Positions 713 to 58,692 of a DNA stretch of 64,000 nt are shown here, in pieces (position 1 is the first letter of the stretch; every line of letters begins with the position of its first letter). The translations under genes and the position numbers were made by a program. The notes beneath the pieces are model-generated. The model was not told the origin of the DNA and did no database searches. It was given only the letters and a program-made list of their open reading frames with translations. The DNA comes from an uncultured bacterium (lineage in GTDB: Bacteria; Patescibacteriota; CPR2; UBA1875; CAIMLA01). The stretch is taken from the NCBI GenBank assembly GCA_903842085.1, contig CAIMLA010000043.1:1563-65562 (forward strand). The letters run 5' to 3'.

Positions 713-3700
713 ATGTATTTAAAGAAACTAGAAATATACGGTTTTAAATCCTTTGGCTCAAAAAGTGTCTTGGACTTTGAGCCGGATTGTGGAGCTGCTG
801 AAATTACGGCAATCGTTGGCCCGAACGGATCAGGGAAAAGTAATGTCGCCGATGCGATCAGATGGGTCTTGGGAGAGCAAAGCAATAATATCCTTAGAAG
901 TAAAAAGAGCGAGGATGTTATTTTTTGTGGTAGTGAATTAAAAAGTCGTTCTTCATTCGCTGAAGTTGTAATCACGCTATCACAAGAAAAAGAAATTATC
1001 ATCGAGATAAATAACAAAAAACATTCATTTCCCGAAATCTCGGTTAGCAGAAGGCTCTACAGAAGCGGGGAAAGCGAATACTTTATTAATCATAAAAAGG
1101 TTAGATTGCTCGATATCCAAGAGACCTTGGCTTTTCTCGGGTTTGGTCAATCAACCTATACCGTGATCGGCCAAGGGATGGTCGATCGACTCCTTTTTTT
1201 CAATGCGGCTGAACGGAAAACCTTATTTGATGAAGCTGCTGGAATAAGGCAGTATAAAATAAAAAGAGACCAATCACTAAAAAGGCTTGTGAGCACAGAG
1301 AGTAATTTAATTCGTCTGAATGATATTCTAAAAGAACTCGAACCACGAGTTGTCAACTTGAGAAGACTAGTCAAAAGGGCCGAAGGACGGAAAGAAATAG
1401 ACCTCCAGCTTGAGGCTTTACAAAGGAAGTACTATGGATCATGTTTCTTCGAAATAGACCAGAAAATCGCTCAATATGATCAAGAAAAGACCCAGATCGA
1501 AAAAGCAATTGAAGAGCTCCGAGCCGTTATAGACCACAATCACCAGCGAAAAACAAATACAGGCGAGAAGGACAGTTTCGGCAAAGAGGAGCTCGCCTGT
1601 AATCTGGAGTTAGATAAGCTATATAGCGATCGAGATAAGCTTATTAGAGAGATTGCTTATCAAGAAGGCCTGAAGGTCGAGAGCGAAAACCAAAAAGAGG
1701 CCAAAAAGCAGCAAAAAAAACGTTTAGACAGGGAGAGAACTCAATACGAAGAAAAGGAGACCCATCTTTGTGCCTTGATCGGAAAAAATCAAAAAGAGAT
1801 CCAAGCGTTGGAAGTAGTCGTAAGTGAGGTTGAAGCAAAAATAGAAAAATTAAAACAGAGCGAAAAGCTACTTGAGTTAAATCAGATAAAAAAATCTGAA
1901 AGTGAACAAACTCAAGCGATCGCAATGATTGAAGATAAAATTGGAAAATTGGAAAGCGATAAAGCCGAACTGAAAGAACAAGCCTTTATCTTGGCCAAGG
2001 ATGAGGAGCGGTCAAGAAAGCTAAAGGCAGATCAAGAACAGCTTTCAAATCAAAAAGAAGCCTCTTTAAGACAAATTAACGAGGTTGAAGAGAAGCAGGC
2101 CGAGACAATGAGAAAGAAAAATAATCTCAAGCGAGAGATTGACCAATTAGAAGAGTTGATCAAAATAATTGTACAAAATATCAAAAGCACCGAGGAGGAA
2201 ATACTAAAGACCAGCGATCATATAAGTGAAAAGAACCTGAAAGAAGTCGAAGACACTTTGATAAAGCTTGAAAGAGAAAAGGAATCATTATTTCAAGTAT
2301 TTTCTAGTACTGACAAAGTAAAAGCCACAACCACTTTTGATTTATTCTCAAGGCTTTTTTCTAAAGCGATGGATCAAATAAAACGACTAACCGACTCCTT
2401 GGATGCACGTAAAAGAGGTGAGAAGGAAAGTAAATTAAATAATTTACGGCAAGAGATGGATCACCAAAAAGAGGCGCTGACTGACTTAATCCTGGCCTTT
2501 GGGAAACTTAGCTCCGATATCGATAATTTTGAGAATAAACAAATCGAATTAACGGATCTTATTAACAATTTGGAGGGTGAGTTAAAATCACTTTCTCTTG
2601 AATTAGCGAAAAAAGACGGGCCAGGGAGGATAGAGGTGATAAGCGGAAAAATTCAGTCAATCGAAAAGGAACTTATTTTGTTAGAAAGAGACAAAAAACC
2701 TTATCTAGACAATGATTTAGAAATACAAAAAAATTATTTAACCAAGAAAAATGAAATACAGAAAAATATATCAGATTTAAATCAAGAACTTTACCATGAG
2801 AACTTGCTTTTAGCCAGAACGAAAAATATTTTAGAAAATCAACAAAAGGAGAAAGAGCTCTCCGTGGAAAAACTAGTTGAAATTGGGCAAGACCTGTCAA
2901 CTCACTTTGGGTCAGAGAATAATACCGTTCAAATACAAGATTCATCGCAACAAAAAGAAAAATTGGAGCAAGTCGAAGGACAAATAAAAGACTATAAGGA
3001 CAAGTTAGATAAGATCTATCTGAAAAAGAAGGAAACCGAAGCGGAAGACAGAAAAGCAGAACAAGAGGCCCATCAATATGAAAGCAAGGTAGTCGAATTT
3101 AGTAAAAAGCTCAACGAAGTCATTATGAGTCTTAGCCACTATCAAACAAAAAAAGAAAGTCTCAACGAAGAAGTTGGAAGCCTGAATAAATTTAATGACT
3201 CTAAGATGGCGCCAGCGGTCTTATCGCAGGAAGAAAAGGATTTGTTAAAAGCCAAAATCGAAAATCTAAAGCGAAAAAAAGAAATAATTGGGGGAGTCGA
3301 TCCTGAAACTATTAGTGAATTCGAGGAGCTTGATCAGAGAGAAACGGTGATGAGGCAGCAAGTTAATGATTTGGTTGTGGCCAAAAGCGACCTGGAAAAA
3401 ATTATTCAAGAATTAGATCAAAAAATTAAGAACAAATTTACTCAGACTTTCTCCGAGATCGCAAAACAATTTAATTATTATTTTTCAGTTTTGTTCAATG
3501 GTGGTTCCTCAAAACTGGAATTTGGTGAAGACGACCAAAACAATCTAGGCGTAGAAATTTCTGCCAGTCCGCCTGGGAAAAAAGTTCAAAGTTTGAATGT
3601 CTTATCAGGAGGGGAGAGAACCTTAACCTCTTTGGCCCTGTTATTCGCAATCCTGTCAGTTAATCCAAGTCCATTTTGTGTCCTAGATGAAGTCGATGCC

Positions 3701-16470: not shown

Positions 16471-16493
16471 ACTCCATAACTATGGAGTTTTTT
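16471..16493. terminator. Bidirectional intrinsic terminator between the SBP gene and the convergent tRNA operon
   Basis: AAAAA-ACTCCA-TAACTA-TGGAGT-TTTTT. The hairpin has an A-run and a T-run, so it reads as hairpin plus U-tract on both strands. Confidence 0.65.
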
Positions 16494-16579
16494 GGTGCCC
16501 GAGGCGGGACTCGAACCCGCAAGATGTCACCACCAACGGATTTTAAGTCCGTCGCGTATACCAATTCCGCCACCCGGGC
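16493..16579 (-). tRNA. tRNA-Leu(TAA), 87 nt, long variable arm, CCA encoded
   Basis: The reverse complement is GCCCGGGTGGCGGAATTGGTATACGCGACGGACTTAAAATCCGT...GGGTTCGAGTCCCGCCTCGGGCACCA. Cloverleaf folded by hand; anticodon loop CTTAAAA. Confidence 0.9.
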
Positions 16580-16624
16580 ATTAGATTTAAGCAAAACCAA
16601 ACGAATCAGGAAGCCCCATCAATC

Positions 16625-16699
16625 TGGAGGCCTCGCCCGGAATTGAACCGGGGTGAACGGTTTTGCAGACCGCTGCGTAAACCACTCCGCCACGAGGCC
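16625..16699 (-). tRNA. tRNA-Cys(GCA), 75 nt, CCA encoded
   Basis: The reverse complement is GGCCTCGTGGCGGAGTGG...GCGGTCTGCAAAACCGT...GGTTCAATTCCGGGCGAGGCCTCCA. Anticodon loop CTGCAAA. Confidence 0.9.
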
Positions 16700-16706
16700 A
16701 TTTATA

Positions 16707-16782
16707 TGGAGCGAGAGACGGGGCTCGAACCCGCGACCTCAACCTTGGCAAGGTTGCGCTCTACCAGCTAAGCTACTCTCGC
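16707..16782 (-). tRNA. tRNA-Gly(GCC), 76 nt, CCA encoded
   Basis: The reverse complement is GCGAGAGTAGCTTAGCTGGTAGAGCGCAACCTTGCCAAGGTTGAGGTCGCGGGTTCGAGCCCCGTCTCTCGCTCCA. Confidence 0.92.
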
Positions 16783-16819
16783 AAACACACGTGGACTAGA
16801 TTACGTCGAGATTGATTTA

Positions 16820-16895
<76 letters not shown>

Positions 16896-16963
16896 TTATT
16901 TTCTTTTTCTTCTTACTAAGATTCTTCTGGCGATAAATAACGTCCAGATCAATCTTGGTAAAA

Positions 16964-17040
16964 TGGTGGGCGATGGGGGATTCGAACCCGCGACCTCCTC
17001 GGTGTAAACGAGATGCTCTAACCAGCTGAGCTAATCGCCC
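16964..17040 (-). tRNA. tRNA-Val(TAC), 77 nt, CCA encoded
   Basis: The reverse complement is GGGCGATTAGCTCAGCTGGTTAGAGCATCTCGTTTACACCGAGGAGGTCGCGGGTTCGAATCCCCCATCGCCCACCA. Confidence 0.9.
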
Positions 17041-17077
17041 CGATATCAATGTTCAATTGACTCGTATCCCTTAACTT

Positions 17078-17164
17078 TGGTGCGGACGAGAGGACTTGAA
17101 CCTCCAAGACCTTTCGGTCACTAGCACCTCATGCTAGCGCGTATACCAATTCCGCCACGTCCGC
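17078..17164 (-). tRNA. tRNA-Leu(GAG), 87 nt, long variable arm, CCA encoded
   Basis: The reverse complement is GCGGACGTGGCGGAATTGGTATACGCGCTAGCATGAGGTGCTAG...GGAGGTTCAAGTCCTCTCGTCCGCACCA. Anticodon loop ATGAGGT. Confidence 0.9.
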
Positions 17165-38912: not shown

Positions 38913-38938
38913 TAATTTTATTTATCTTGGAAACAAAA

Positions 38939-38968
38939 AGGGTGCCGATTGGCACTCTCTATTTATTG
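38939..38968 (+). terminator. Terminator candidate after murB
   Basis: AGGGTGCC-GATT-GGCACTCT forms 8 bp including one G-U, followed by the T-rich CTATTTATTGTT. Confidence 0.5.
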
Positions 38969-38994
38969 TTACTAAATATTTTTCATTAGAGTTA

Positions 38995-39009
38995 TGACAA
39001 AGCAAGGTT
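38995..39009 (+). repeat. Left arm of the 15-bp perfect inverted repeat
   Basis: TGACAAAGCAAGGTT, followed by GGTAAAGT. The right arm is followed, on its own strand, by ATCCTA-GGCTAAAGT. Confidence 0.9.
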
Positions 39010-39026
39010 GGTAAAGTATGTTGGGA

Positions 39027-39059
39027 GGGCGGAGCGCACAGAATGTGTGCACTCCGCCC
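39027..39059 (-). terminator. GC-rich 13-bp hairpin 20 nt downstream of the high-GC ORF stop
   Basis: GGGCGGAG-C-GCACA-GAATG-TGTGC-A-CTCCGCCC. No clear U-tract follows on the minus strand, so terminator function is uncertain. An alternative helix is GCGCACA (39034-39040) with TGTGCGC (39062-39068). Confidence 0.45.
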
Positions 39060-39078: not shown

Positions 39079-39624
39079 CTAGGCCTTGGCGCGAGCCCGC
39101 TTCTTGGCGTTTTTGGTTTTGCCCCCGGCGGGGGCCGGCTTGGCCCCGCTGGACCCCTTCTCAGGGCCGGCCGTCGATGTGGCGAGCTTCCTCGCCCTCT
39201 GGGCGGCTTTTCGAGCCTCCAGAGTTTGGGGGTCGGCTTTGGCCCGCTGTGGCCGATTCAGGTTCCGGAGAACCCGAACGGCTTCAGCAAGAAAGAGGGG
39301 ATTGAGGTACCTCTCGGCACTCTCGACCCCGTGTTCCCGACAGAGGTAAAATGCTACCTCTGCGAGGAACCGTCTTGTCTGATTGAATTCTCCGTCCAAA
39401 ATCGCGGTTTTCACCGCGGAAAAATGGACGTGGTAAGCTTTCAAAGCCATGACTCGTCTCGACACCGAGTCGATCTTGACTCGGCCCTGGTTGGATATGA
39501 AGACCAACCAGCTTTCGAGGCAGCCCATCAGGGCCTCCTCAGAGTCGATGTTGAGTGCCGTTTCGAACTCCTGGTAACGCTGGGCATTCGGCCCAACGGT
39601 TATGGTGATGACGACGTCCGACAT
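39079..39624 (-). CDS. Hypothetical protein, high GC, with a basic Lys/Ala/Pro/Arg-rich C-terminal tail
   Basis: 181 aa, with AAGGAG 5 nt upstream of the ATG. Third codon positions are strongly G/C-biased in this frame only (about three quarters of the first 28 codons). The tail reads ...RKAAQRARKLATSTAGPEKGSSGAKPAPAGGKTKNAKKRARAKA. No family was recognised for residues 1-130. Confidence 0.7.
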   Translation of the reverse strand: MSDVVITITVGPNAQRYQEFETALNIDSEEALMGCLESWLVFISNQGRVKIDSVSRRVMALKAYHVHFSAVKTAILDGEFNQTRRFLAEVAFYLCREHGVESAERYLNPLFLAEAVRVLRNLNRPQRAKADPQTLEARKAAQRARKLATSTAGPEKGSSGAKPAPAGGKTKNAKKRARAKA

Positions 39625-39717
39625 CTCGACTCCTTTTGCGTGGTTTTAAGAACAAAAATATACTTTAAGGCTTTTAGAACACTACTATTTTGCAATAGAG
39701 TGACTTTAGCCTAGGAT

Positions 39718-39732
39718 AACCTTGCTTTGTCA
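39718..39732 (-). repeat. Right arm of the 15-bp perfect inverted repeat
   Basis: The plus strand reads AACCTTGCTTTGTCA, which is the reverse complement of 38995-39009. Confidence 0.9.
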
Positions 39733-39779
39733 ATGAGCTTTGGTACTTCGAAAAAGTTTAACTCTCTCGAACAGCGAAT

Positions 39780-39808
39780 ATAATAGCATAAACAGAGCTA
39801 ATAGTCAA
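39780..39808 (-). promoter_or_regulatory. Sigma70-like promoter facing the high-GC ORF, located outside the right inverted repeat (TTGACT-17 nt-TATTAT on the minus strand)
   Basis: The minus strand reads TTGACT attagctctgtttatgc TATTAT. The -35 is at 39803-39808 and the -10 at 39780-39785. It would give a 5' UTR of about 150 nt that includes the right repeat arm. Confidence 0.45.
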
Positions 39809-39905
39809 GTGTTTTGTGGAGACTAATTGAGAAGATATATTGCAGATAAAACAAGAAGCCGCTCGATTGACATATTCGCGAAAACACATCTCACTTGCGG
39901 CTCCA

Positions 39906-39960
39906 ACTATAGTTTAACAACACGCCTAATTTTAGGCAGCTTGTTGTATTCAGCTATAGT
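39906..39960. other. Nested three-helix hairpin in non-coding DNA (candidate structured RNA element)
   Basis: ACTATAG-TTTA-ACAACA-C-GCCTA-ATTT-TAGGC-AGCT-TGTTGT-ATTCAG-CTATAGT gives 7+6+5 = 18 Watson-Crick pairs within 55 nt. The strand is unknown. Confidence 0.35.
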
Positions 39961-40173
39961 CCCTCCTTTGCTAAGCCTTCAAAATACAGACTGAGTCCGT
40001 AGCTCTATTAACGCACTAGATAGCTTCTTTTATTCACTATCTAATTTGTCATAGTCGAGCGCGTAGCTCAAGCCTTGGCATCTGTATCTCTCCAGTTTAA
40101 CCGGGAGGGAGAAAAAATCGTCTTTGTGATTATTTCTCTCTCACGATTAAAGGTAAAATCATTATAACATCTT

Positions 40174-42780
40174 TTATTTTACTGTCACAGTAACATTGCT
40201 GCTAGCAGTTTGTCCAATCTTATCGGTGACTGTTGCGATAATATCAGCTGAAGCCCCTGATGGTTTATCAAAAGTTGCGACATAATTAGTCCCGTCTAGA
40301 GTTGCTTCTTTGGATTGACTGCCAATTTTGATCGTCACAGATTGAACCCCATTTGGAGCAGTTATCGTCACACTAACACTATACGGTGTCGCGAAATCGT
40401 CACTCGCTTTTAGGGTCGTAAAAGATATTGTCGGGGCGCCTTGGTTAATTGGACAGGTATCCTGGCCAATTTGTTCTGATCCAGAAGTTGAATAACCGCT
40501 ACTTGCTGTCCAAGCTCCGATCGGAGCAAACCATCTGCCATAAGAGGCATCGGTCGAAGGAATCTCGGCCGTGACGACGTTGATCGTTCTCGTCTCAATT
40601 TGAGCTGGGTCTGGAGGACAACTGTTGTTAACAAGTTTACCTGAAAGTTTATTAATTTTAAGTTCTGTAGCGGCCACAGCGTCTTGAATATTATACCAAG
40701 ATGGGAAAATATCTGTTACCGTTTTGCTCCCAGCGACTGGTTTTTTACCGGTGACGGCGTCTAGAGTCACCGTTTTTATCCCACTGGGTCTGGTAAATTG
40801 TTCATTGGGAGTCCCGTTGAGGGCGTTAATCATATAATCGTGCCAAATTGGGGCAGCCGCAATCGAACCACCGGCTTTTGTCATGGGGGTTCCATCATTA
40901 TTACCAGCCCAAACGCCTGTTACTAAGCTTGGGGTGTAACCAAGCGTCCAAGCGTCTTTGTAATCATTGGTAGTTCCGGTTTTGGCGGCGACTGGGCGAC
41001 CATGGAGCGTTAGGGGGCCACCGGTACCAAAGACATCTGCTCGGGCGTAATCATCAGATAAAACATTGCTTATCAGATATGTAATTTGTGAATCTAAGAC
41101 TTTTTTACCAGCATTTTCTTTGTATTCATCAATTGTTTTTCCTTTCGCGTCTTCAACTTTAATATACCAACTTGGGTCTTGTTTGACGCCACTATTAGCA
41201 AAAACCCCATAAGCATTGACCATATCTAAAAGCTTAACCTCTCCAGCGCCCAAGACAAGGGATAGGCCGTAAAGGCTTTTATCGTTTAAAGTTGTAATCC
41301 CCATTGCGTGGACGGTATCGATAACGTTATCAAGGCCAGCGATATAAAGTGTTTTTACCGCTGGGATATTGAGTGAGTTTTGCAAGGCGCTTCTCATCGT
41401 GACCGGTCCGCGAAATCGGCCATCATAATTACTGGGCACATAACCGCCGCCAAAATCAGTCTTTAGATCAAAGAGCACACTTCCAGGACCCCAATTATTT
41501 AACTTCCAAGCAGTTGCATAGGCAAAAGGTTTGAAAGAGGAACCAGGCTGACGATCCATAACCGCAACATTGACATTGCCATCTATATCAGGATTAAAGA
41601 AATCACGACTGCCAACCATGGCCAAGATTTGACCAGTTTTCGGATCCATCGAAACTAAGGATGCATTTGAGGCATTGTAAGCAGTCCGATTTTTGTCAAC
41701 GTTGGTTGCAACTGCCTCCTCGGCATATTGCTGTTTCGTGATATCTAAAGTGGTATAAACCTTTAAACCGCCTTCATTGACCAGTTTTTCACCGTATTTT
41801 TCGACTAGTTTTTCTTTGACATACATTACAAAGTGAGGTGCCGTGATGGAGCCATAAGGATTTTGCGAGAAGGCAACTTCTTTTTTCATGGCAGCTTCAG
41901 CATCCTTGGTCGTAATAAATTTTTGAGCGGCCATATCTTTTAAGACTTGATCTTTTCTTTTTAAGAGCAAAGCTTTATTTGTCCCGTAAGGAGAATAATA
42001 AGTTGGAGCTTGAGGCAGGGCGGCCAAGGTCGAACATTCTTCTAAACTTAAATCTTTTAAATCTTTATTAAAATAAGTTTTTGCGGCAACTTTAATCCCA
42101 TAAGCATTAGAGCCATATGGAATTTCATTGAGATACATTTTTAAAATATCGTCTTTCTTGTACATCTGTTCTATTTCGATTGAAAGGATGATCTCTTTAA
42201 TCTTGCGAGAATAAGACCTCTCGGTTGTTAGGAGGGCGTTCCGTACAAATTGTTGGGTGATTGTTGAGCCACCGCCTTTGGTGCGATCACCAGTAATAAT
42301 ACCGGAAAAAGCTCTGGCAATACCGCGGACACTAAAACCACTGTGCTTATAAAAATCTTTGTCCTCAATCGCGATCGTGGCATTTTTACAATTTTGAGGA
42401 ATCTCATCCCAGCCAGCCATGAGCCGATTTTTGTCGCCGTGGATCTCATAGAGAAGTTTTCCGTTTCGATCAAAAATCTGAGTCGATTGAGCCGAAATAC
42501 GAGCATTTATTTTGTTTGGAGTTGGTAAATCCTTGGCATACCAGGCAAAAACACCAAAGAGGAGGCCCAGAAAAACTACGGTAACGAGGCCGATTTTCTT
42601 CCAACCACTTTTTGTCGTAAAAAGTGACTTTAATGATTCTTTAAAGCCTGAGAAATTTAAATTCTTAAAGGAGAATCCCTTTTTTTGTCGAGACCGAACG
42701 GCTGTCTTGGCAGAACGAGGACGCGAAAAAGTTCGATAACTTTGTCTTGAGCGTCGCTTTCTCGGTTTATATAAAGGCAT
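40174..42780 (-). CDS. Bifunctional class A penicillin-binding protein (PBP1A-type transglycosylase/transpeptidase) with a C-terminal Ig-like extension
   Basis: GT51 motifs (AIEDKDFYKHSGF, GGSTITQQ), transpeptidase SSFKP, SLN and KTGTT, an N-terminal TM anchor, and a beta-rich C-terminal segment of about 130 aa. Confidence 0.92.
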   Translation of the reverse strand: MPLYKPRKRRSRQSYRTFSRPRSAKTAVRSRQKKGFSFKNLNFSGFKESLKSLFTTKSGWKKIGLVTVVFLGLLFGVFAWYAKDLPTPNKINARISAQSTQIFDRNGKLLYEIHGDKNRLMAGWDEIPQNCKNATIAIEDKDFYKHSGFSVRGIARAFSGIITGDRTKGGGSTITQQFVRNALLTTERSYSRKIKEIILSIEIEQMYKKDDILKMYLNEIPYGSNAYGIKVAAKTYFNKDLKDLSLEECSTLAALPQAPTYYSPYGTNKALLLKRKDQVLKDMAAQKFITTKDAEAAMKKEVAFSQNPYGSITAPHFVMYVKEKLVEKYGEKLVNEGGLKVYTTLDITKQQYAEEAVATNVDKNRTAYNASNASLVSMDPKTGQILAMVGSRDFFNPDIDGNVNVAVMDRQPGSSFKPFAYATAWKLNNWGPGSVLFDLKTDFGGGYVPSNYDGRFRGPVTMRSALQNSLNIPAVKTLYIAGLDNVIDTVHAMGITTLNDKSLYGLSLVLGAGEVKLLDMVNAYGVFANSGVKQDPSWYIKVEDAKGKTIDEYKENAGKKVLDSQITYLISNVLSDDYARADVFGTGGPLTLHGRPVAAKTGTTNDYKDAWTLGYTPSLVTGVWAGNNDGTPMTKAGGSIAAAPIWHDYMINALNGTPNEQFTRPSGIKTVTLDAVTGKKPVAGSKTVTDIFPSWYNIQDAVAATELKINKLSGKLVNNSCPPDPAQIETRTINVVTAEIPSTDASYGRWFAPIGAWTASSGYSTSGSEQIGQDTCPINQGAPTISFTTLKASDDFATPYSVSVTITAPNGVQSVTIKIGSQSKEATLDGTNYVATFDKPSGASADIIATVTDKIGQTASSNVTVTVK

Positions 42781-58215: not shown

Positions 58216-58692
58216 ATGCCAAGAGATCCTAGAAAAGTTGCCAAGAGAAAACTAGACCCAGATATGAAATACCAAAGTATCTTGGTCACAAAATTTATAA
58301 ATAAAATTATGCTAGATGGCAAAAAAGCCTTAGCCACAAATCTTGTCTATGGTGCTTTTGAACAAATCGAAAAAGATACTGGAAAACCAGCTCTAGAAAT
58401 TTTCGAACAAGCGATAAAAAATGTTTCGCCAGTTCTGCAAGTTAAATCACGCAGAATTGGTGGCGCCAATTATCAAGTCCCAATGGAAGTCAAAGGACAA
58501 AGACGACTTCACTACGGATTCGTCTGGATTAGAGAAGCGGCGAGAAGCCGTTCCGGCGTCTCTTATGATAAGGCCTTAGCCCAAGAAATCATTGATGCTT
58601 ATAAAAATACTGGTACCGCCATCAAGAAAAGAGAAGAGACACACAAGATGGCAGAGGCGAACAAAGCCTTTGCTCACTTTGCTCGGTACTAA
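58216..58692 (+). CDS. rpsG: 30S ribosomal protein S7
   Basis: KFINKIMLDGKK and VKSRRIGGANYQVP are canonical S7. Confidence 0.98.
   Translation: MPRDPRKVAKRKLDPDMKYQSILVTKFINKIMLDGKKALATNLVYGAFEQIEKDTGKPALEIFEQAIKNVSPVLQVKSRRIGGANYQVPMEVKGQRRLHYGFVWIREAARSRSGVSYDKALAQEIIDAYKNTGTAIKKREETHKMAEANKAFAHFARY

Follow-up and report, generated by a model that had tools for sequence, protein, structure and literature searches.

A GC content and codon usage out of line with the genome are, as a matter of routine, taken as a sign of recent horizontal transfer, and the question raised by the locus described here is whether that inference can hold for a single gene whose composition departs sharply from that of its surroundings. 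The locus lies within a stretch of 64,000 nucleotides, hereafter the window, of contig CAIMLA010000043.1 (GenBank assembly GCA_903842085.1), derived from an uncultured bacterium of the Patescibacteriota, and consists of a 181-codon open reading frame (ORF), designated ORF181, on the minus strand at 39079..39624, the translation of which is identical to that considered in an earlier, sequence-only reading of this DNA. It was found that the GC-richness of ORF181 persists across species and does not appear to be the result of a recent import, as the anomaly affects a single reading frame, is passed on between species and lies above the level that neutral decay would leave, and the standard transfer inference consequently fails for this gene. 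An anomaly held above neutral decay calls for some other force on this one gene, be it selection at the RNA level, biased conversion or a combination of the two. The evidence on ORF181 is wholly computational and derives from approximately eight sequences.

ORF181 is a genuine gene and not an artefact. Its whole-gene GC content is 0.59, with values of 0.60, 0.46 and 0.72 at the first, second and third codon positions (GC1, GC2 and GC3), and the last of these compares with a GC3 of 0.368 ± 0.027 (maximum 0.43) for the 46 other long ORFs of the window, placing ORF181 at z = 13 and upholding the earlier view that its codon usage is incompatible with that of the remainder of the window. A fine GC profile showed that the GC-rich tract comprises exactly the coding sequence and a 3′ hairpin, that GC content is ~0.33 right at the start codon, and that the leader upstream is of native composition. 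The minus-strand ORF was recognized as the coding frame on the basis of codon periodicity, third-position substitutions and whole-codon insertions and deletions: substitutions between the orthologous loci L005 and L006 are distributed over codon positions three, one and two in the proportion 35:22:8, the indels among homologs are whole codons in a codon-level alignment, and the ratio of nonsynonymous to synonymous divergence (dN/dS) is 0.06-0.45 between orthologs of one allele type, and hence below 0.5. Together with a properly spaced AAGGAG Shine-Dalgarno site, which is conserved among the orthologs along with the start codon, these results confirm that the minus-strand frame is a real gene, as had been supposed from the sequence. 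In five of seven orthologs the antisense frame, aligned by codons, remains open, as any GC3-rich gene would give, and a plus-strand shadow frame was rejected as the true gene owing to stops in L001 and L012 and because most substitutions would hit its codon position 1. A non-coding RNA misread as a gene was ruled out by the same codon periodicity, third-position substitutions and whole-codon indels, and a search of the region against Rfam returned no RNA family at E < 1, with only a spurious microRNA match outside the gene. An assembly chimera was dismissed as identical junctions were seen in ENA, JGI, NCBI and Logan assemblies that are independent of one another, while translational selection for preferred codons was discarded as the EF-Tu, EF-G, RpoB/C and ribosomal-protein genes of the window stay at a GC3 of 0.31-0.38. 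The other strong GC peak of the window (0.53) corresponds to six tRNA genes, specifying Leu-TAA, Cys, Gly, Phe, Val and Leu-GAG.

The orthologs of ORF181 have a gene GC content of 63-65% in loci of ~41% GC, and a GC3 of 0.83-0.84 where measured, with 0.88 being found in the distant homolog at locus L008. Between the window and L001 the synonymous divergence (dS) of ORF181 is ~1.0 in both its 5′ part (the head) and its 3′ part (the tail), as compared to 1.06 for the adjacent MurB gene. In a decay model with two classes, a native equilibrium GC3 of 0.37 and a decay factor of ~0.4 per lineage at a dS of ~1, the neutral ceiling after this divergence is a GC3 of ~0.62, even from an ancestor at 1.0, whereas values of 0.72 and 0.84 are observed; neutral persistence of foreign GC thus appears to be ruled out. 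Third-position changes polarised outside the window lineage amount to 48 from strong (G or C) to weak (A or T) bases (S-to-W) versus 19 in the reverse direction (W-to-S), which departs from the native-bias expectation of at least 6.4:1 (P = 8e-4 to 2e-5), and this flux test is conservative since a known artefact of parsimony shifts the counts the opposite way. Furthermore, two types of head, A and B, both show a GC3 of ~0.84 despite mutually saturated synonymous sites, indicating that their divergence took place under a GC-favouring regime. The recent horizontal acquisition that the sequence-only reading had regarded as the simplest explanation is therefore not supported, in view of syntenic orthologs of higher GC3, of a dS about equal to that of MurB and of a GC3 above the neutral ceiling. 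That reading had also named homologs in low-GC relatives at native composition as an observation that would speak against it; such homologs are indeed present, while a native composition is not. Nor did its suggestion of an actinobacterial or other high-GC donor find support, as no homolog from a high-GC organism, phage or plasmid was detected in protein libraries of 5.8 and 1.8 billion sequences, viral contigs, phages and plasmids, and the codon usage of ORF181, in which AGA and AGG together account for 32% of arginine codons, CTC exceeds CTG and C-ending codons are abundant, is unlike that of classical high-GC Actinobacteria in its AGA and AGG share and its preference of CTC over CTG. The rank order of C-ending codons in ORF181 rather resembles the native order, with an extra push towards G/C, and the high-GC tract starts at the ATG, behind a promoter and leader of native composition that are conserved in all lineages.

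Searches of Pfam, PHROGs, NCBIfam and PADLOC yielded no match to ORF181 at threshold, in keeping with the earlier statement that the protein is of no recognised family. When 5.8 billion proteins were searched through a word index, six were retrieved, including the window's own 99%-identical cluster, and phmmer, run exhaustively over 1.8 billion representatives, contributed one further credible distant homolog, P0007 (at L008), two other matches being repetitive false positives. Collections of genome, metagenome and viral contigs contained one extra, truncated copy of ORF181 and nothing viral, tblastn against phage and plasmid collections gave zero matches, and the tail alone as query retrieved no match, for which the word-index limits of the search are probably responsible. 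A phage, plasmid or defence origin was accordingly set aside, as PHROGs, PADLOC, viral contigs and tblastn on phages and plasmids lend it no support. The family thus comprises approximately eight sequences, all from uncultured freshwater organisms sampled in freshwater lake metagenomes. Residues 21-101 of P0003, the ortholog in L009, align to positions 22-102 of 132 of Pfam DUF4427 (PF14468) with E = 2e-4 and a score of 21.7 bits, under the curated cut-off of 22.7, and none of the remaining six members, among them the window protein, gave a match; DUF4427, itself an uncharacterised family on which a literature search for DUF4427/PF14468 found no papers, is a lead only. A general literature search on Patescibacteria, GC content and orphan genes likewise returned nothing relevant. 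By an EF-Tu search the organism is assigned to the Patescibacteria, or candidate phyla radiation (CPR), its nearest named relatives being Berkelbacteria at ~80% EF-Tu identity, with named Saccharibacteria absent among the matches listed, and ORF181 is confined to a small Patescibacteria clade near Berkelbacteria.

Within this clade ORF181 occupies the MurB-adjacent slot in every relative whose contig extends into a neighbouring gene, NusA, ClpB, PIN-TRAM and MurB lying on one strand and PBP1A, a ~550-bp spacer and ORF181 converging on them. Long contigs show the gene between PBP1A and MurB, while on short contigs only the adjoining MurB end is visible. In the window its vicinity encodes MurB, PIN-TRAM, ClpB, NusA, PBP1A, TyrRS and RecG, no integrase or transposase is adjacent to it, and no empty site was seen, the loci inspected being those carrying ORF181. 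The contig of L008, just 1.2 kb in length, presents a different context, with a second ORF (961..1209, plus strand) after the gene and a 3′ flank of ~0.52 GC; this second ORF has no Pfam match, and a larger GC-rich island may be present there. Contigs of independent assemblies (L004, L005, L006, L007, L009-L012 and L017) end inside ORF181 or 0-330 nt upstream of it, and in L004 (positions 1-133) and L005 (positions 1-115) the sequence upstream of the promoter is unlike that of L001, the rest of these loci being near-identical or closely related. This suggests a breakpoint of rearrangement or polymorphism on the promoter-proximal side of ORF181, and repeated assembly breaks within or just upstream of the gene are consistent with co-existing variants.

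These observations bear on an explanation in which ORF181 was imported long ago from an unsampled high-GC source, be it a host, phage or plasmid, and in which allele exchange or re-import has since supplied little-ameliorated copies, the GC-richness being historical and any RNA structure a by-product. Such an import, which we consider somewhat unlikely, would account for a composition and a Gly/Ala/Arg/Pro (GARP) amino-acid signature typical of high-GC genes, for the other context and second, fairly GC-rich ORF of the most distant homolog, and for the polymorphism suggested by frequent contig breaks, and it agrees with the recombination demonstrated at the locus, which is described below. The state of the window lineage, where GC3 is down to 0.72 and the third-position flux is 30 S-to-W to 5 W-to-S, is also what amelioration predicts. 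It is opposed by the absence of any homolog beyond the clade in the libraries and collections listed above, by the lack of a mobility gene, and by a GC boundary that coincides exactly with the start codon, the promoter and leader ahead of it being native and conserved. In addition, the equality of dS between ORF181 and MurB is what co-divergence of the two in place would give, and re-import would produce it only by chance, the mutually saturated allele types are both at a GC3 of ~0.84, and composition leaves unexplained the folding excess over codon-preserving shuffles that is reported below.

At the protein level ORF181 consists of a variable head (codons 1-118) and a conserved basic tail (codons 119-181). 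The 63-residue tail, with the consensus LRN..RP..K.D....R.....AR.L..S.AGP..G..G......GG.T..A..R.R, contains 18 Lys and Arg versus 3 Asp and Glu residues (net charge +15), and 23 of the 29 invariant columns of a seven-protein alignment fall within it. Its dN/dS is 0.06-0.14 in most pairs, and since synonymous changes are present within the tail its conservation acts on the protein. The basic C-terminal tail noted earlier is therefore real, whereas its description as low-complexity is not borne out, as the tail is non-repetitive and the best-conserved stretch of the protein. AlphaFold2, supplied with a seven-sequence alignment, predicted a confidently all-helical head, the predicted local distance difference test (pLDDT) per 10-residue block over residues 11-120 being mostly > 90 with only block 11-20 at 79, and a tail of lower confidence that is mostly disordered. 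Neither a known DNA-binding domain, including the HU fold (Pfam Bac_DNA_binding), nor a signal peptide was found in the protein, which gave no match to a known fold, and for the head no relatives were detected. Type A heads occur in the window, L001, L009 and L012 and type B heads in L005, L006, L017 and L008; the two are barely alignable (hhalign probability 1.9%), albeit with an equal order of predicted helices, the second model being weaker (pLDDT 66, built on a mixed alignment), and within allele types the head has a dN/dS of 0.22-0.45. Head type is discordant with the phylogeny of the flanking genes, as L001 and L005, although closely related (ClpB 92% and PIN-TRAM 94% identical), carry different types, and the more distant window genome has type A in common with L001. 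L005 and L006 differ at 73 positions over 6.5 kb, 65 of which lie at gene positions 311-695, while MurB, PIN-TRAM and ClpB are 100% identical and the dS of the head is 0.58 versus 0 for MurB. The substitutions in this tract resemble those that accumulate in the ordinary way over long periods of purifying selection (dN/dS 0.23), which indicates an imported recombination tract of ~385 bp and not hypermutation; between L005 and L017, ORF181 is more alike than the flanks. Comparison of the loci thus shows the head as a fast-evolving part that is exchanged between lineages by homologous recombination, with at least two deeply divergent types. A target of a diversity-generating retroelement was considered and rejected, as the substitutions are of all types and mostly at third positions and no part of the gene was found in a second copy, the latter search covering the 64-kb window, the ORFs of which were not scanned for reverse transcriptase.

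Exchange of this kind could itself raise GC content if divergent alleles, with the conserved leader, tail and 3′ untranslated region (UTR) as anchors, underwent frequent heteroduplex repair that drives AT-to-GC changes to fixation in the polymorphic coding tract, making ORF181 a hot spot of GC-biased gene conversion. The ~385-bp tract within otherwise identical 6.5-kb loci, the disagreement between gene tree and flank tree, the restriction of GC-richness to the part that varies between alleles and a W-to-S flux significantly above the native expectation are all as this mechanism would have it. We nevertheless hold it to be improbable, since the GC3 of ORF181 is 0.47 above background, and to our knowledge an effect of that size is far beyond anything reported for bacteria, since the conserved tail offers few mismatches and yet is the most GC-rich part, and since biased conversion leaves the excess folding over GC-preserving shuffles and the 5′-3′ helix described below unexplained. 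The arrangement of a conserved tail, a variable head and allele swapping is also typical of conflict genes, and ORF181 might be pictured as a translocated effector in which the basic C-terminus (KKRARAKA, with basic residues clustered at alternating positions) serves as a VirB/D4-type export signal and the head evolves under an arms race, the opponent being a host or competitor, the more so as the Patescibacteria contain many episymbionts. This appears highly improbable, as the protein lacks a signal peptide and no secretion genes lie nearby, the dN/dS of the head remains below 1 within allele types, the conserved part is, at 63 residues, far longer than a charge cluster, and the RNA features are left unexplained.

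The folding of the coding region was assessed by comparing its minimum free energy with that of synonymous-codon permutations, which leave protein and codon usage unchanged. For seven orthologs z-scores of -6.2, -2.7, -4.2, -3.3, -4.6, -2.7 and -1.2 were obtained, and shuffling within 30-codon blocks gave -5.1, -1.3, -3.5, -2.0, -4.1, -1.4 and -1.0, as compared to a mean of -0.12 (standard deviation 1.49) for twenty control genes of the window. Head- and tail-coding parts both contribute to the excess folding; individual coding hairpins are mostly without positional conservation, a few in the tail-coding part having compensatory changes. Among the controls, the sole gene that folds far better than its synonymous shuffles (z = -3.9) is a 158-codon ORF which, from its position before EF-G and EF-Tu, we take to be ribosomal protein S7.

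The predicted transcript architecture places this coding region between paired ends (Table 1). From a sigma-70-type promoter with an extended -10 element we infer a transcription start near 39773, followed by an AT-rich leader of ~148 nt that begins with the hairpin P1, a few bases from the predicted 5′ end; four lineages retain the pairs of P1, and the variation among them (G-U/A-U and G-C/G-U) is consistent with the sense strand. The leader then carries IR-L, the exact complement of IR-R downstream of the gene, and this 15-mer, presumably the 15-bp repeat mentioned in the sequence-only reading, occurs at these two sites only in the window; it is invariant in every locus containing it, IR-R being invariant everywhere but in the most distant locus, L008. 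The resulting 15-bp helix spans ~720 nt and, when four orthologous transcripts are folded whole, belongs to the minimum-energy structure at a mean pair probability of 0.97-0.98. An RNAalifold consensus recovers it together with a nested 8-bp helix, and the leader hairpin P2 between the two forms a three-way junction; P2 is capped by a loop of GNRA type, namely GCAA in the window and GAAA in relatives, and has three compensatory double changes (G-C to A-U once and C-G to U-A twice), while the nested helix, with one pair broken in L009, is less well supported than the 15-bp helix. Behind the gene the 3′ UTR has a predicted GC-rich hairpin of 14 bp, which lacks a following U-tract and was not called by a terminator scan; it shows two compensatory double changes in L009 and U-G/C-G variation that fits sense RNA, and in L012 and L008 unrelated sequences still form a hairpin at its position. 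As the likely true terminator lies downstream of IR-R, the messenger RNA (mRNA) should carry both arms of the long-range helix. Computation thus shows a predicted transcript from ~39773 to ~38935 (~840 nt), the ends of which would be joined around the coding region by the 15-bp and 8-bp helices. A role of the repeats as terminal repeats of a mobile element or as invertase sites is less likely, because conservation extends beyond the repeats, the GC boundary lies ~95 nt inside IR-L, orientation is constant wherever the gene and MurB are seen, and the recombination tract ends within the gene. A promoter-like site on the plus strand (ATGACA, 17 nt, TATGTT) overlaps IR-R and is directed into the 3′ end of ORF181; antisense RNA could be made from it, the conservation of the site being inseparable from that of the repeat.

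If the RNA is placed foremost, the ~840-nt transcript may be seen as bifunctional, a large, GC-rich, end-closed RNA with a role of its own, in which the orphan protein arose de novo or co-resides; the high GC, the orphan protein with its Gly/Ala/Arg/Pro-rich tail and the excess folding would then stem from the RNA and not from horizontal transfer. We judge this distinctly unlikely, and a bolder version, in which the cell would make the armoured mRNA for use beyond its own confines, is very unlikely. The account that we tentatively favour, and which we regard as plausible though short of probable, is a composite one, in which a stability-armoured mRNA with maintained GC encodes a nucleic-acid-binding protein. 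According to this model, the GC-rich codons would be a maintained property, selected at least in part for a compact, nuclease-resistant and long-lived mRNA, to the longevity of which the 5′-terminal hairpin, the end-to-end closure, the 3′ hairpins and the GC-rich body would contribute; the protein would bind nucleic acid through its tail, and the head could act as a specificity or interaction module whose diversity is kept by selection. The pressure for high GC may recently have been relaxed in the window lineage, and the lower GC3 of 0.72 and native-like flux there make it appear so. The composite account and the older import, the biased conversion and the effector are not mutually exclusive.

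A number of points weigh against the composite account. The third-position flux of the window lineage is indistinguishable from native bias, and the polarisation by parsimony is crude, being based on three taxa and saturated sites. The folding z-scores are heterogeneous, with three of the seven orthologs only at -1.0 to -1.4 under block shuffles, and those of the antisense strand are nearly equal, such that the test cannot separate sense RNA, antisense RNA and DNA; the AT-rich leader is nonetheless structured, and structure is thus not strictly dependent on high GC. All RNA claims are thermodynamic predictions on four to eight related sequences, the covariation term given by RNAalifold is close to zero or slightly unfavourable, and the 15-bp helix, being invariant in most loci, offers no covariation there. 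In L008 this helix is weakened (-14 versus -22.5 kcal/mol) and is not in the minimum-energy fold, two of its pairs being altered on both sides yet still paired and other pairs lost. Nucleic-acid binding by the tail is a reasonable guess from its charge alone.

Should the end-paired, over-folded mRNA be real, ORF181 would be a case of a large protein gene of an ultra-small bacterium that is expressed from a long-lived message; ultra-small CPR cells are thought to hold few ribosomes and to grow slowly. Most genes of this phylum are still unassigned, and ORF181 represents a new protein family whose conserved basic tail and swappable head make it a candidate nucleoid, RNA-binding or conflict-related factor.

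Table 1. Positions within the window of the features of the ORF181 locus, of the neighbouring candidate RNA and of other elements mentioned in the text.
Feature	Position	Strand	Basis or remark
Sigma-70-type promoter, TTGACT, 17 nt, TGcTATTAT (extended -10)	39780..39808	-	Score 10/12; conserved in orthologous loci
5′-terminal hairpin P1 (predicted)	39747..39771	-	RNAalifold consensus
IR-L TGACAAAGCAAGGTT, 5′ arm of 15-bp long-range helix (predicted)	39718..39732	-	
Leader hairpin P2 (predicted)	39668..39712	-	
TAAAGTAT, 5′ arm of nested 8-bp helix (predicted)	39660..39667	-	RNAalifold consensus, columns 111-118 with 768-775
Shine-Dalgarno site AAGGAG	39630..39635	-	Direct sequence reading; 5 bases ahead of ATG at 39624; unpaired in consensus fold
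Variable all-helical head, codons 1-118	39271..39624	-	
Conserved basic tail, codons 119-181	39082..39270	-	Pattern LRN..RP...ARKLATSTAGPEKGSSG.KPAP.GGKTKNAKKRARAKA
Stop codon of ORF181	39079..39081	-	
GC-rich 14-bp 3′ UTR hairpin (predicted)	39027..39059	-	Terminator scan: not called
ATACTTTA, 3′ arm of nested 8-bp helix (predicted)	39012..39019	-	RNAalifold consensus
IR-R AACCTTGCTTTGTCA, 3′ arm of 15-bp long-range helix (predicted)	38995..39009	-	
Promoter-like site, ATGACA, 17 nt, TATGTT	38994..39022	+	9/12
Likely true terminator, GTGCCAATCGGCAC followed by T-run	38932..38955	-	Terminator scan (38955..38942); common to convergent MurB gene
Promoter-like site of candidate RNA, GTGACA, 16 nt, TATAAT with TG	40161..40188		Near-consensus
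Candidate structured RNA	~39848..40153	-	
Six tRNA genes	16493..17164	-	
158-codon ORF, presumed ribosomal protein S7	58216..58692	+	

Between the PBP1A stop codon and the promoter of ORF181 the window contains an unannotated candidate structured RNA of ~300 nt, preceded by a near-consensus promoter-like site and ending in a terminator hairpin followed by a U-run, with a folding z-score of -5.1 and no match in Rfam. In this segment the window and L001 are ~96% identical versus ~77% over the genes on either side, and of the few differences several are compensatory. The candidate RNA is not directly upstream of ORF181 in L004 or L005.

ORF181 resembles three known groups in part and is not a member of any of them. 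In two type I toxin-antitoxin systems, hok/Sok of plasmid R1 and AapA1/IsoA1 of Helicobacter pylori, a helix between the 5′ and 3′ UTRs and dense internal structure produce a compact and stable mRNA (PMC9841398). The predicted 15-bp and 8-bp closure of the ORF181 transcript and its over-folded body are similar to these fold-back mRNAs; the product of ORF181, however, is a hydrophilic basic protein of 181 residues as compared to a hydrophobic peptide of ~50 residues or fewer, neither its Shine-Dalgarno site nor its start codon is paired in the consensus fold, such that they are not sequestered, and the sole candidate source of a cognate antisense RNA is the weak promoter-like site that overlaps IR-R. 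The basic-tailed nucleoid proteins, represented by the actinobacterial HU/Hlp protein MDP1, Pseudomonas AlgP, chlamydial Hc1/Hc2 and histone H1, have in common with ORF181 a mostly disordered tail rich in Lys, Arg, Ala, Pro and Gly, and by analogy this likeness in composition suggests nucleic-acid binding. ORF181 differs from them in having no HU fold or other known DNA-binding domain, and its tail, in place of tandem PAKK/KPAA/KAAK-type repeats, is a unique sequence conserved near residue-for-residue, such that the conserved module is the tail and not a globular domain. Finally, horizontally acquired ORFans of genomic islets share with ORF181 a GC content and codon usage far from those of the host and homologs in a narrow group only. 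In contrast to these, ORF181 has neither mobility genes nor a donor and is syntenically fixed across species at a dS of ~1, and its GC3 exceeds the neutral ceiling in a tract that begins at its own start codon, behind a native promoter and leader.

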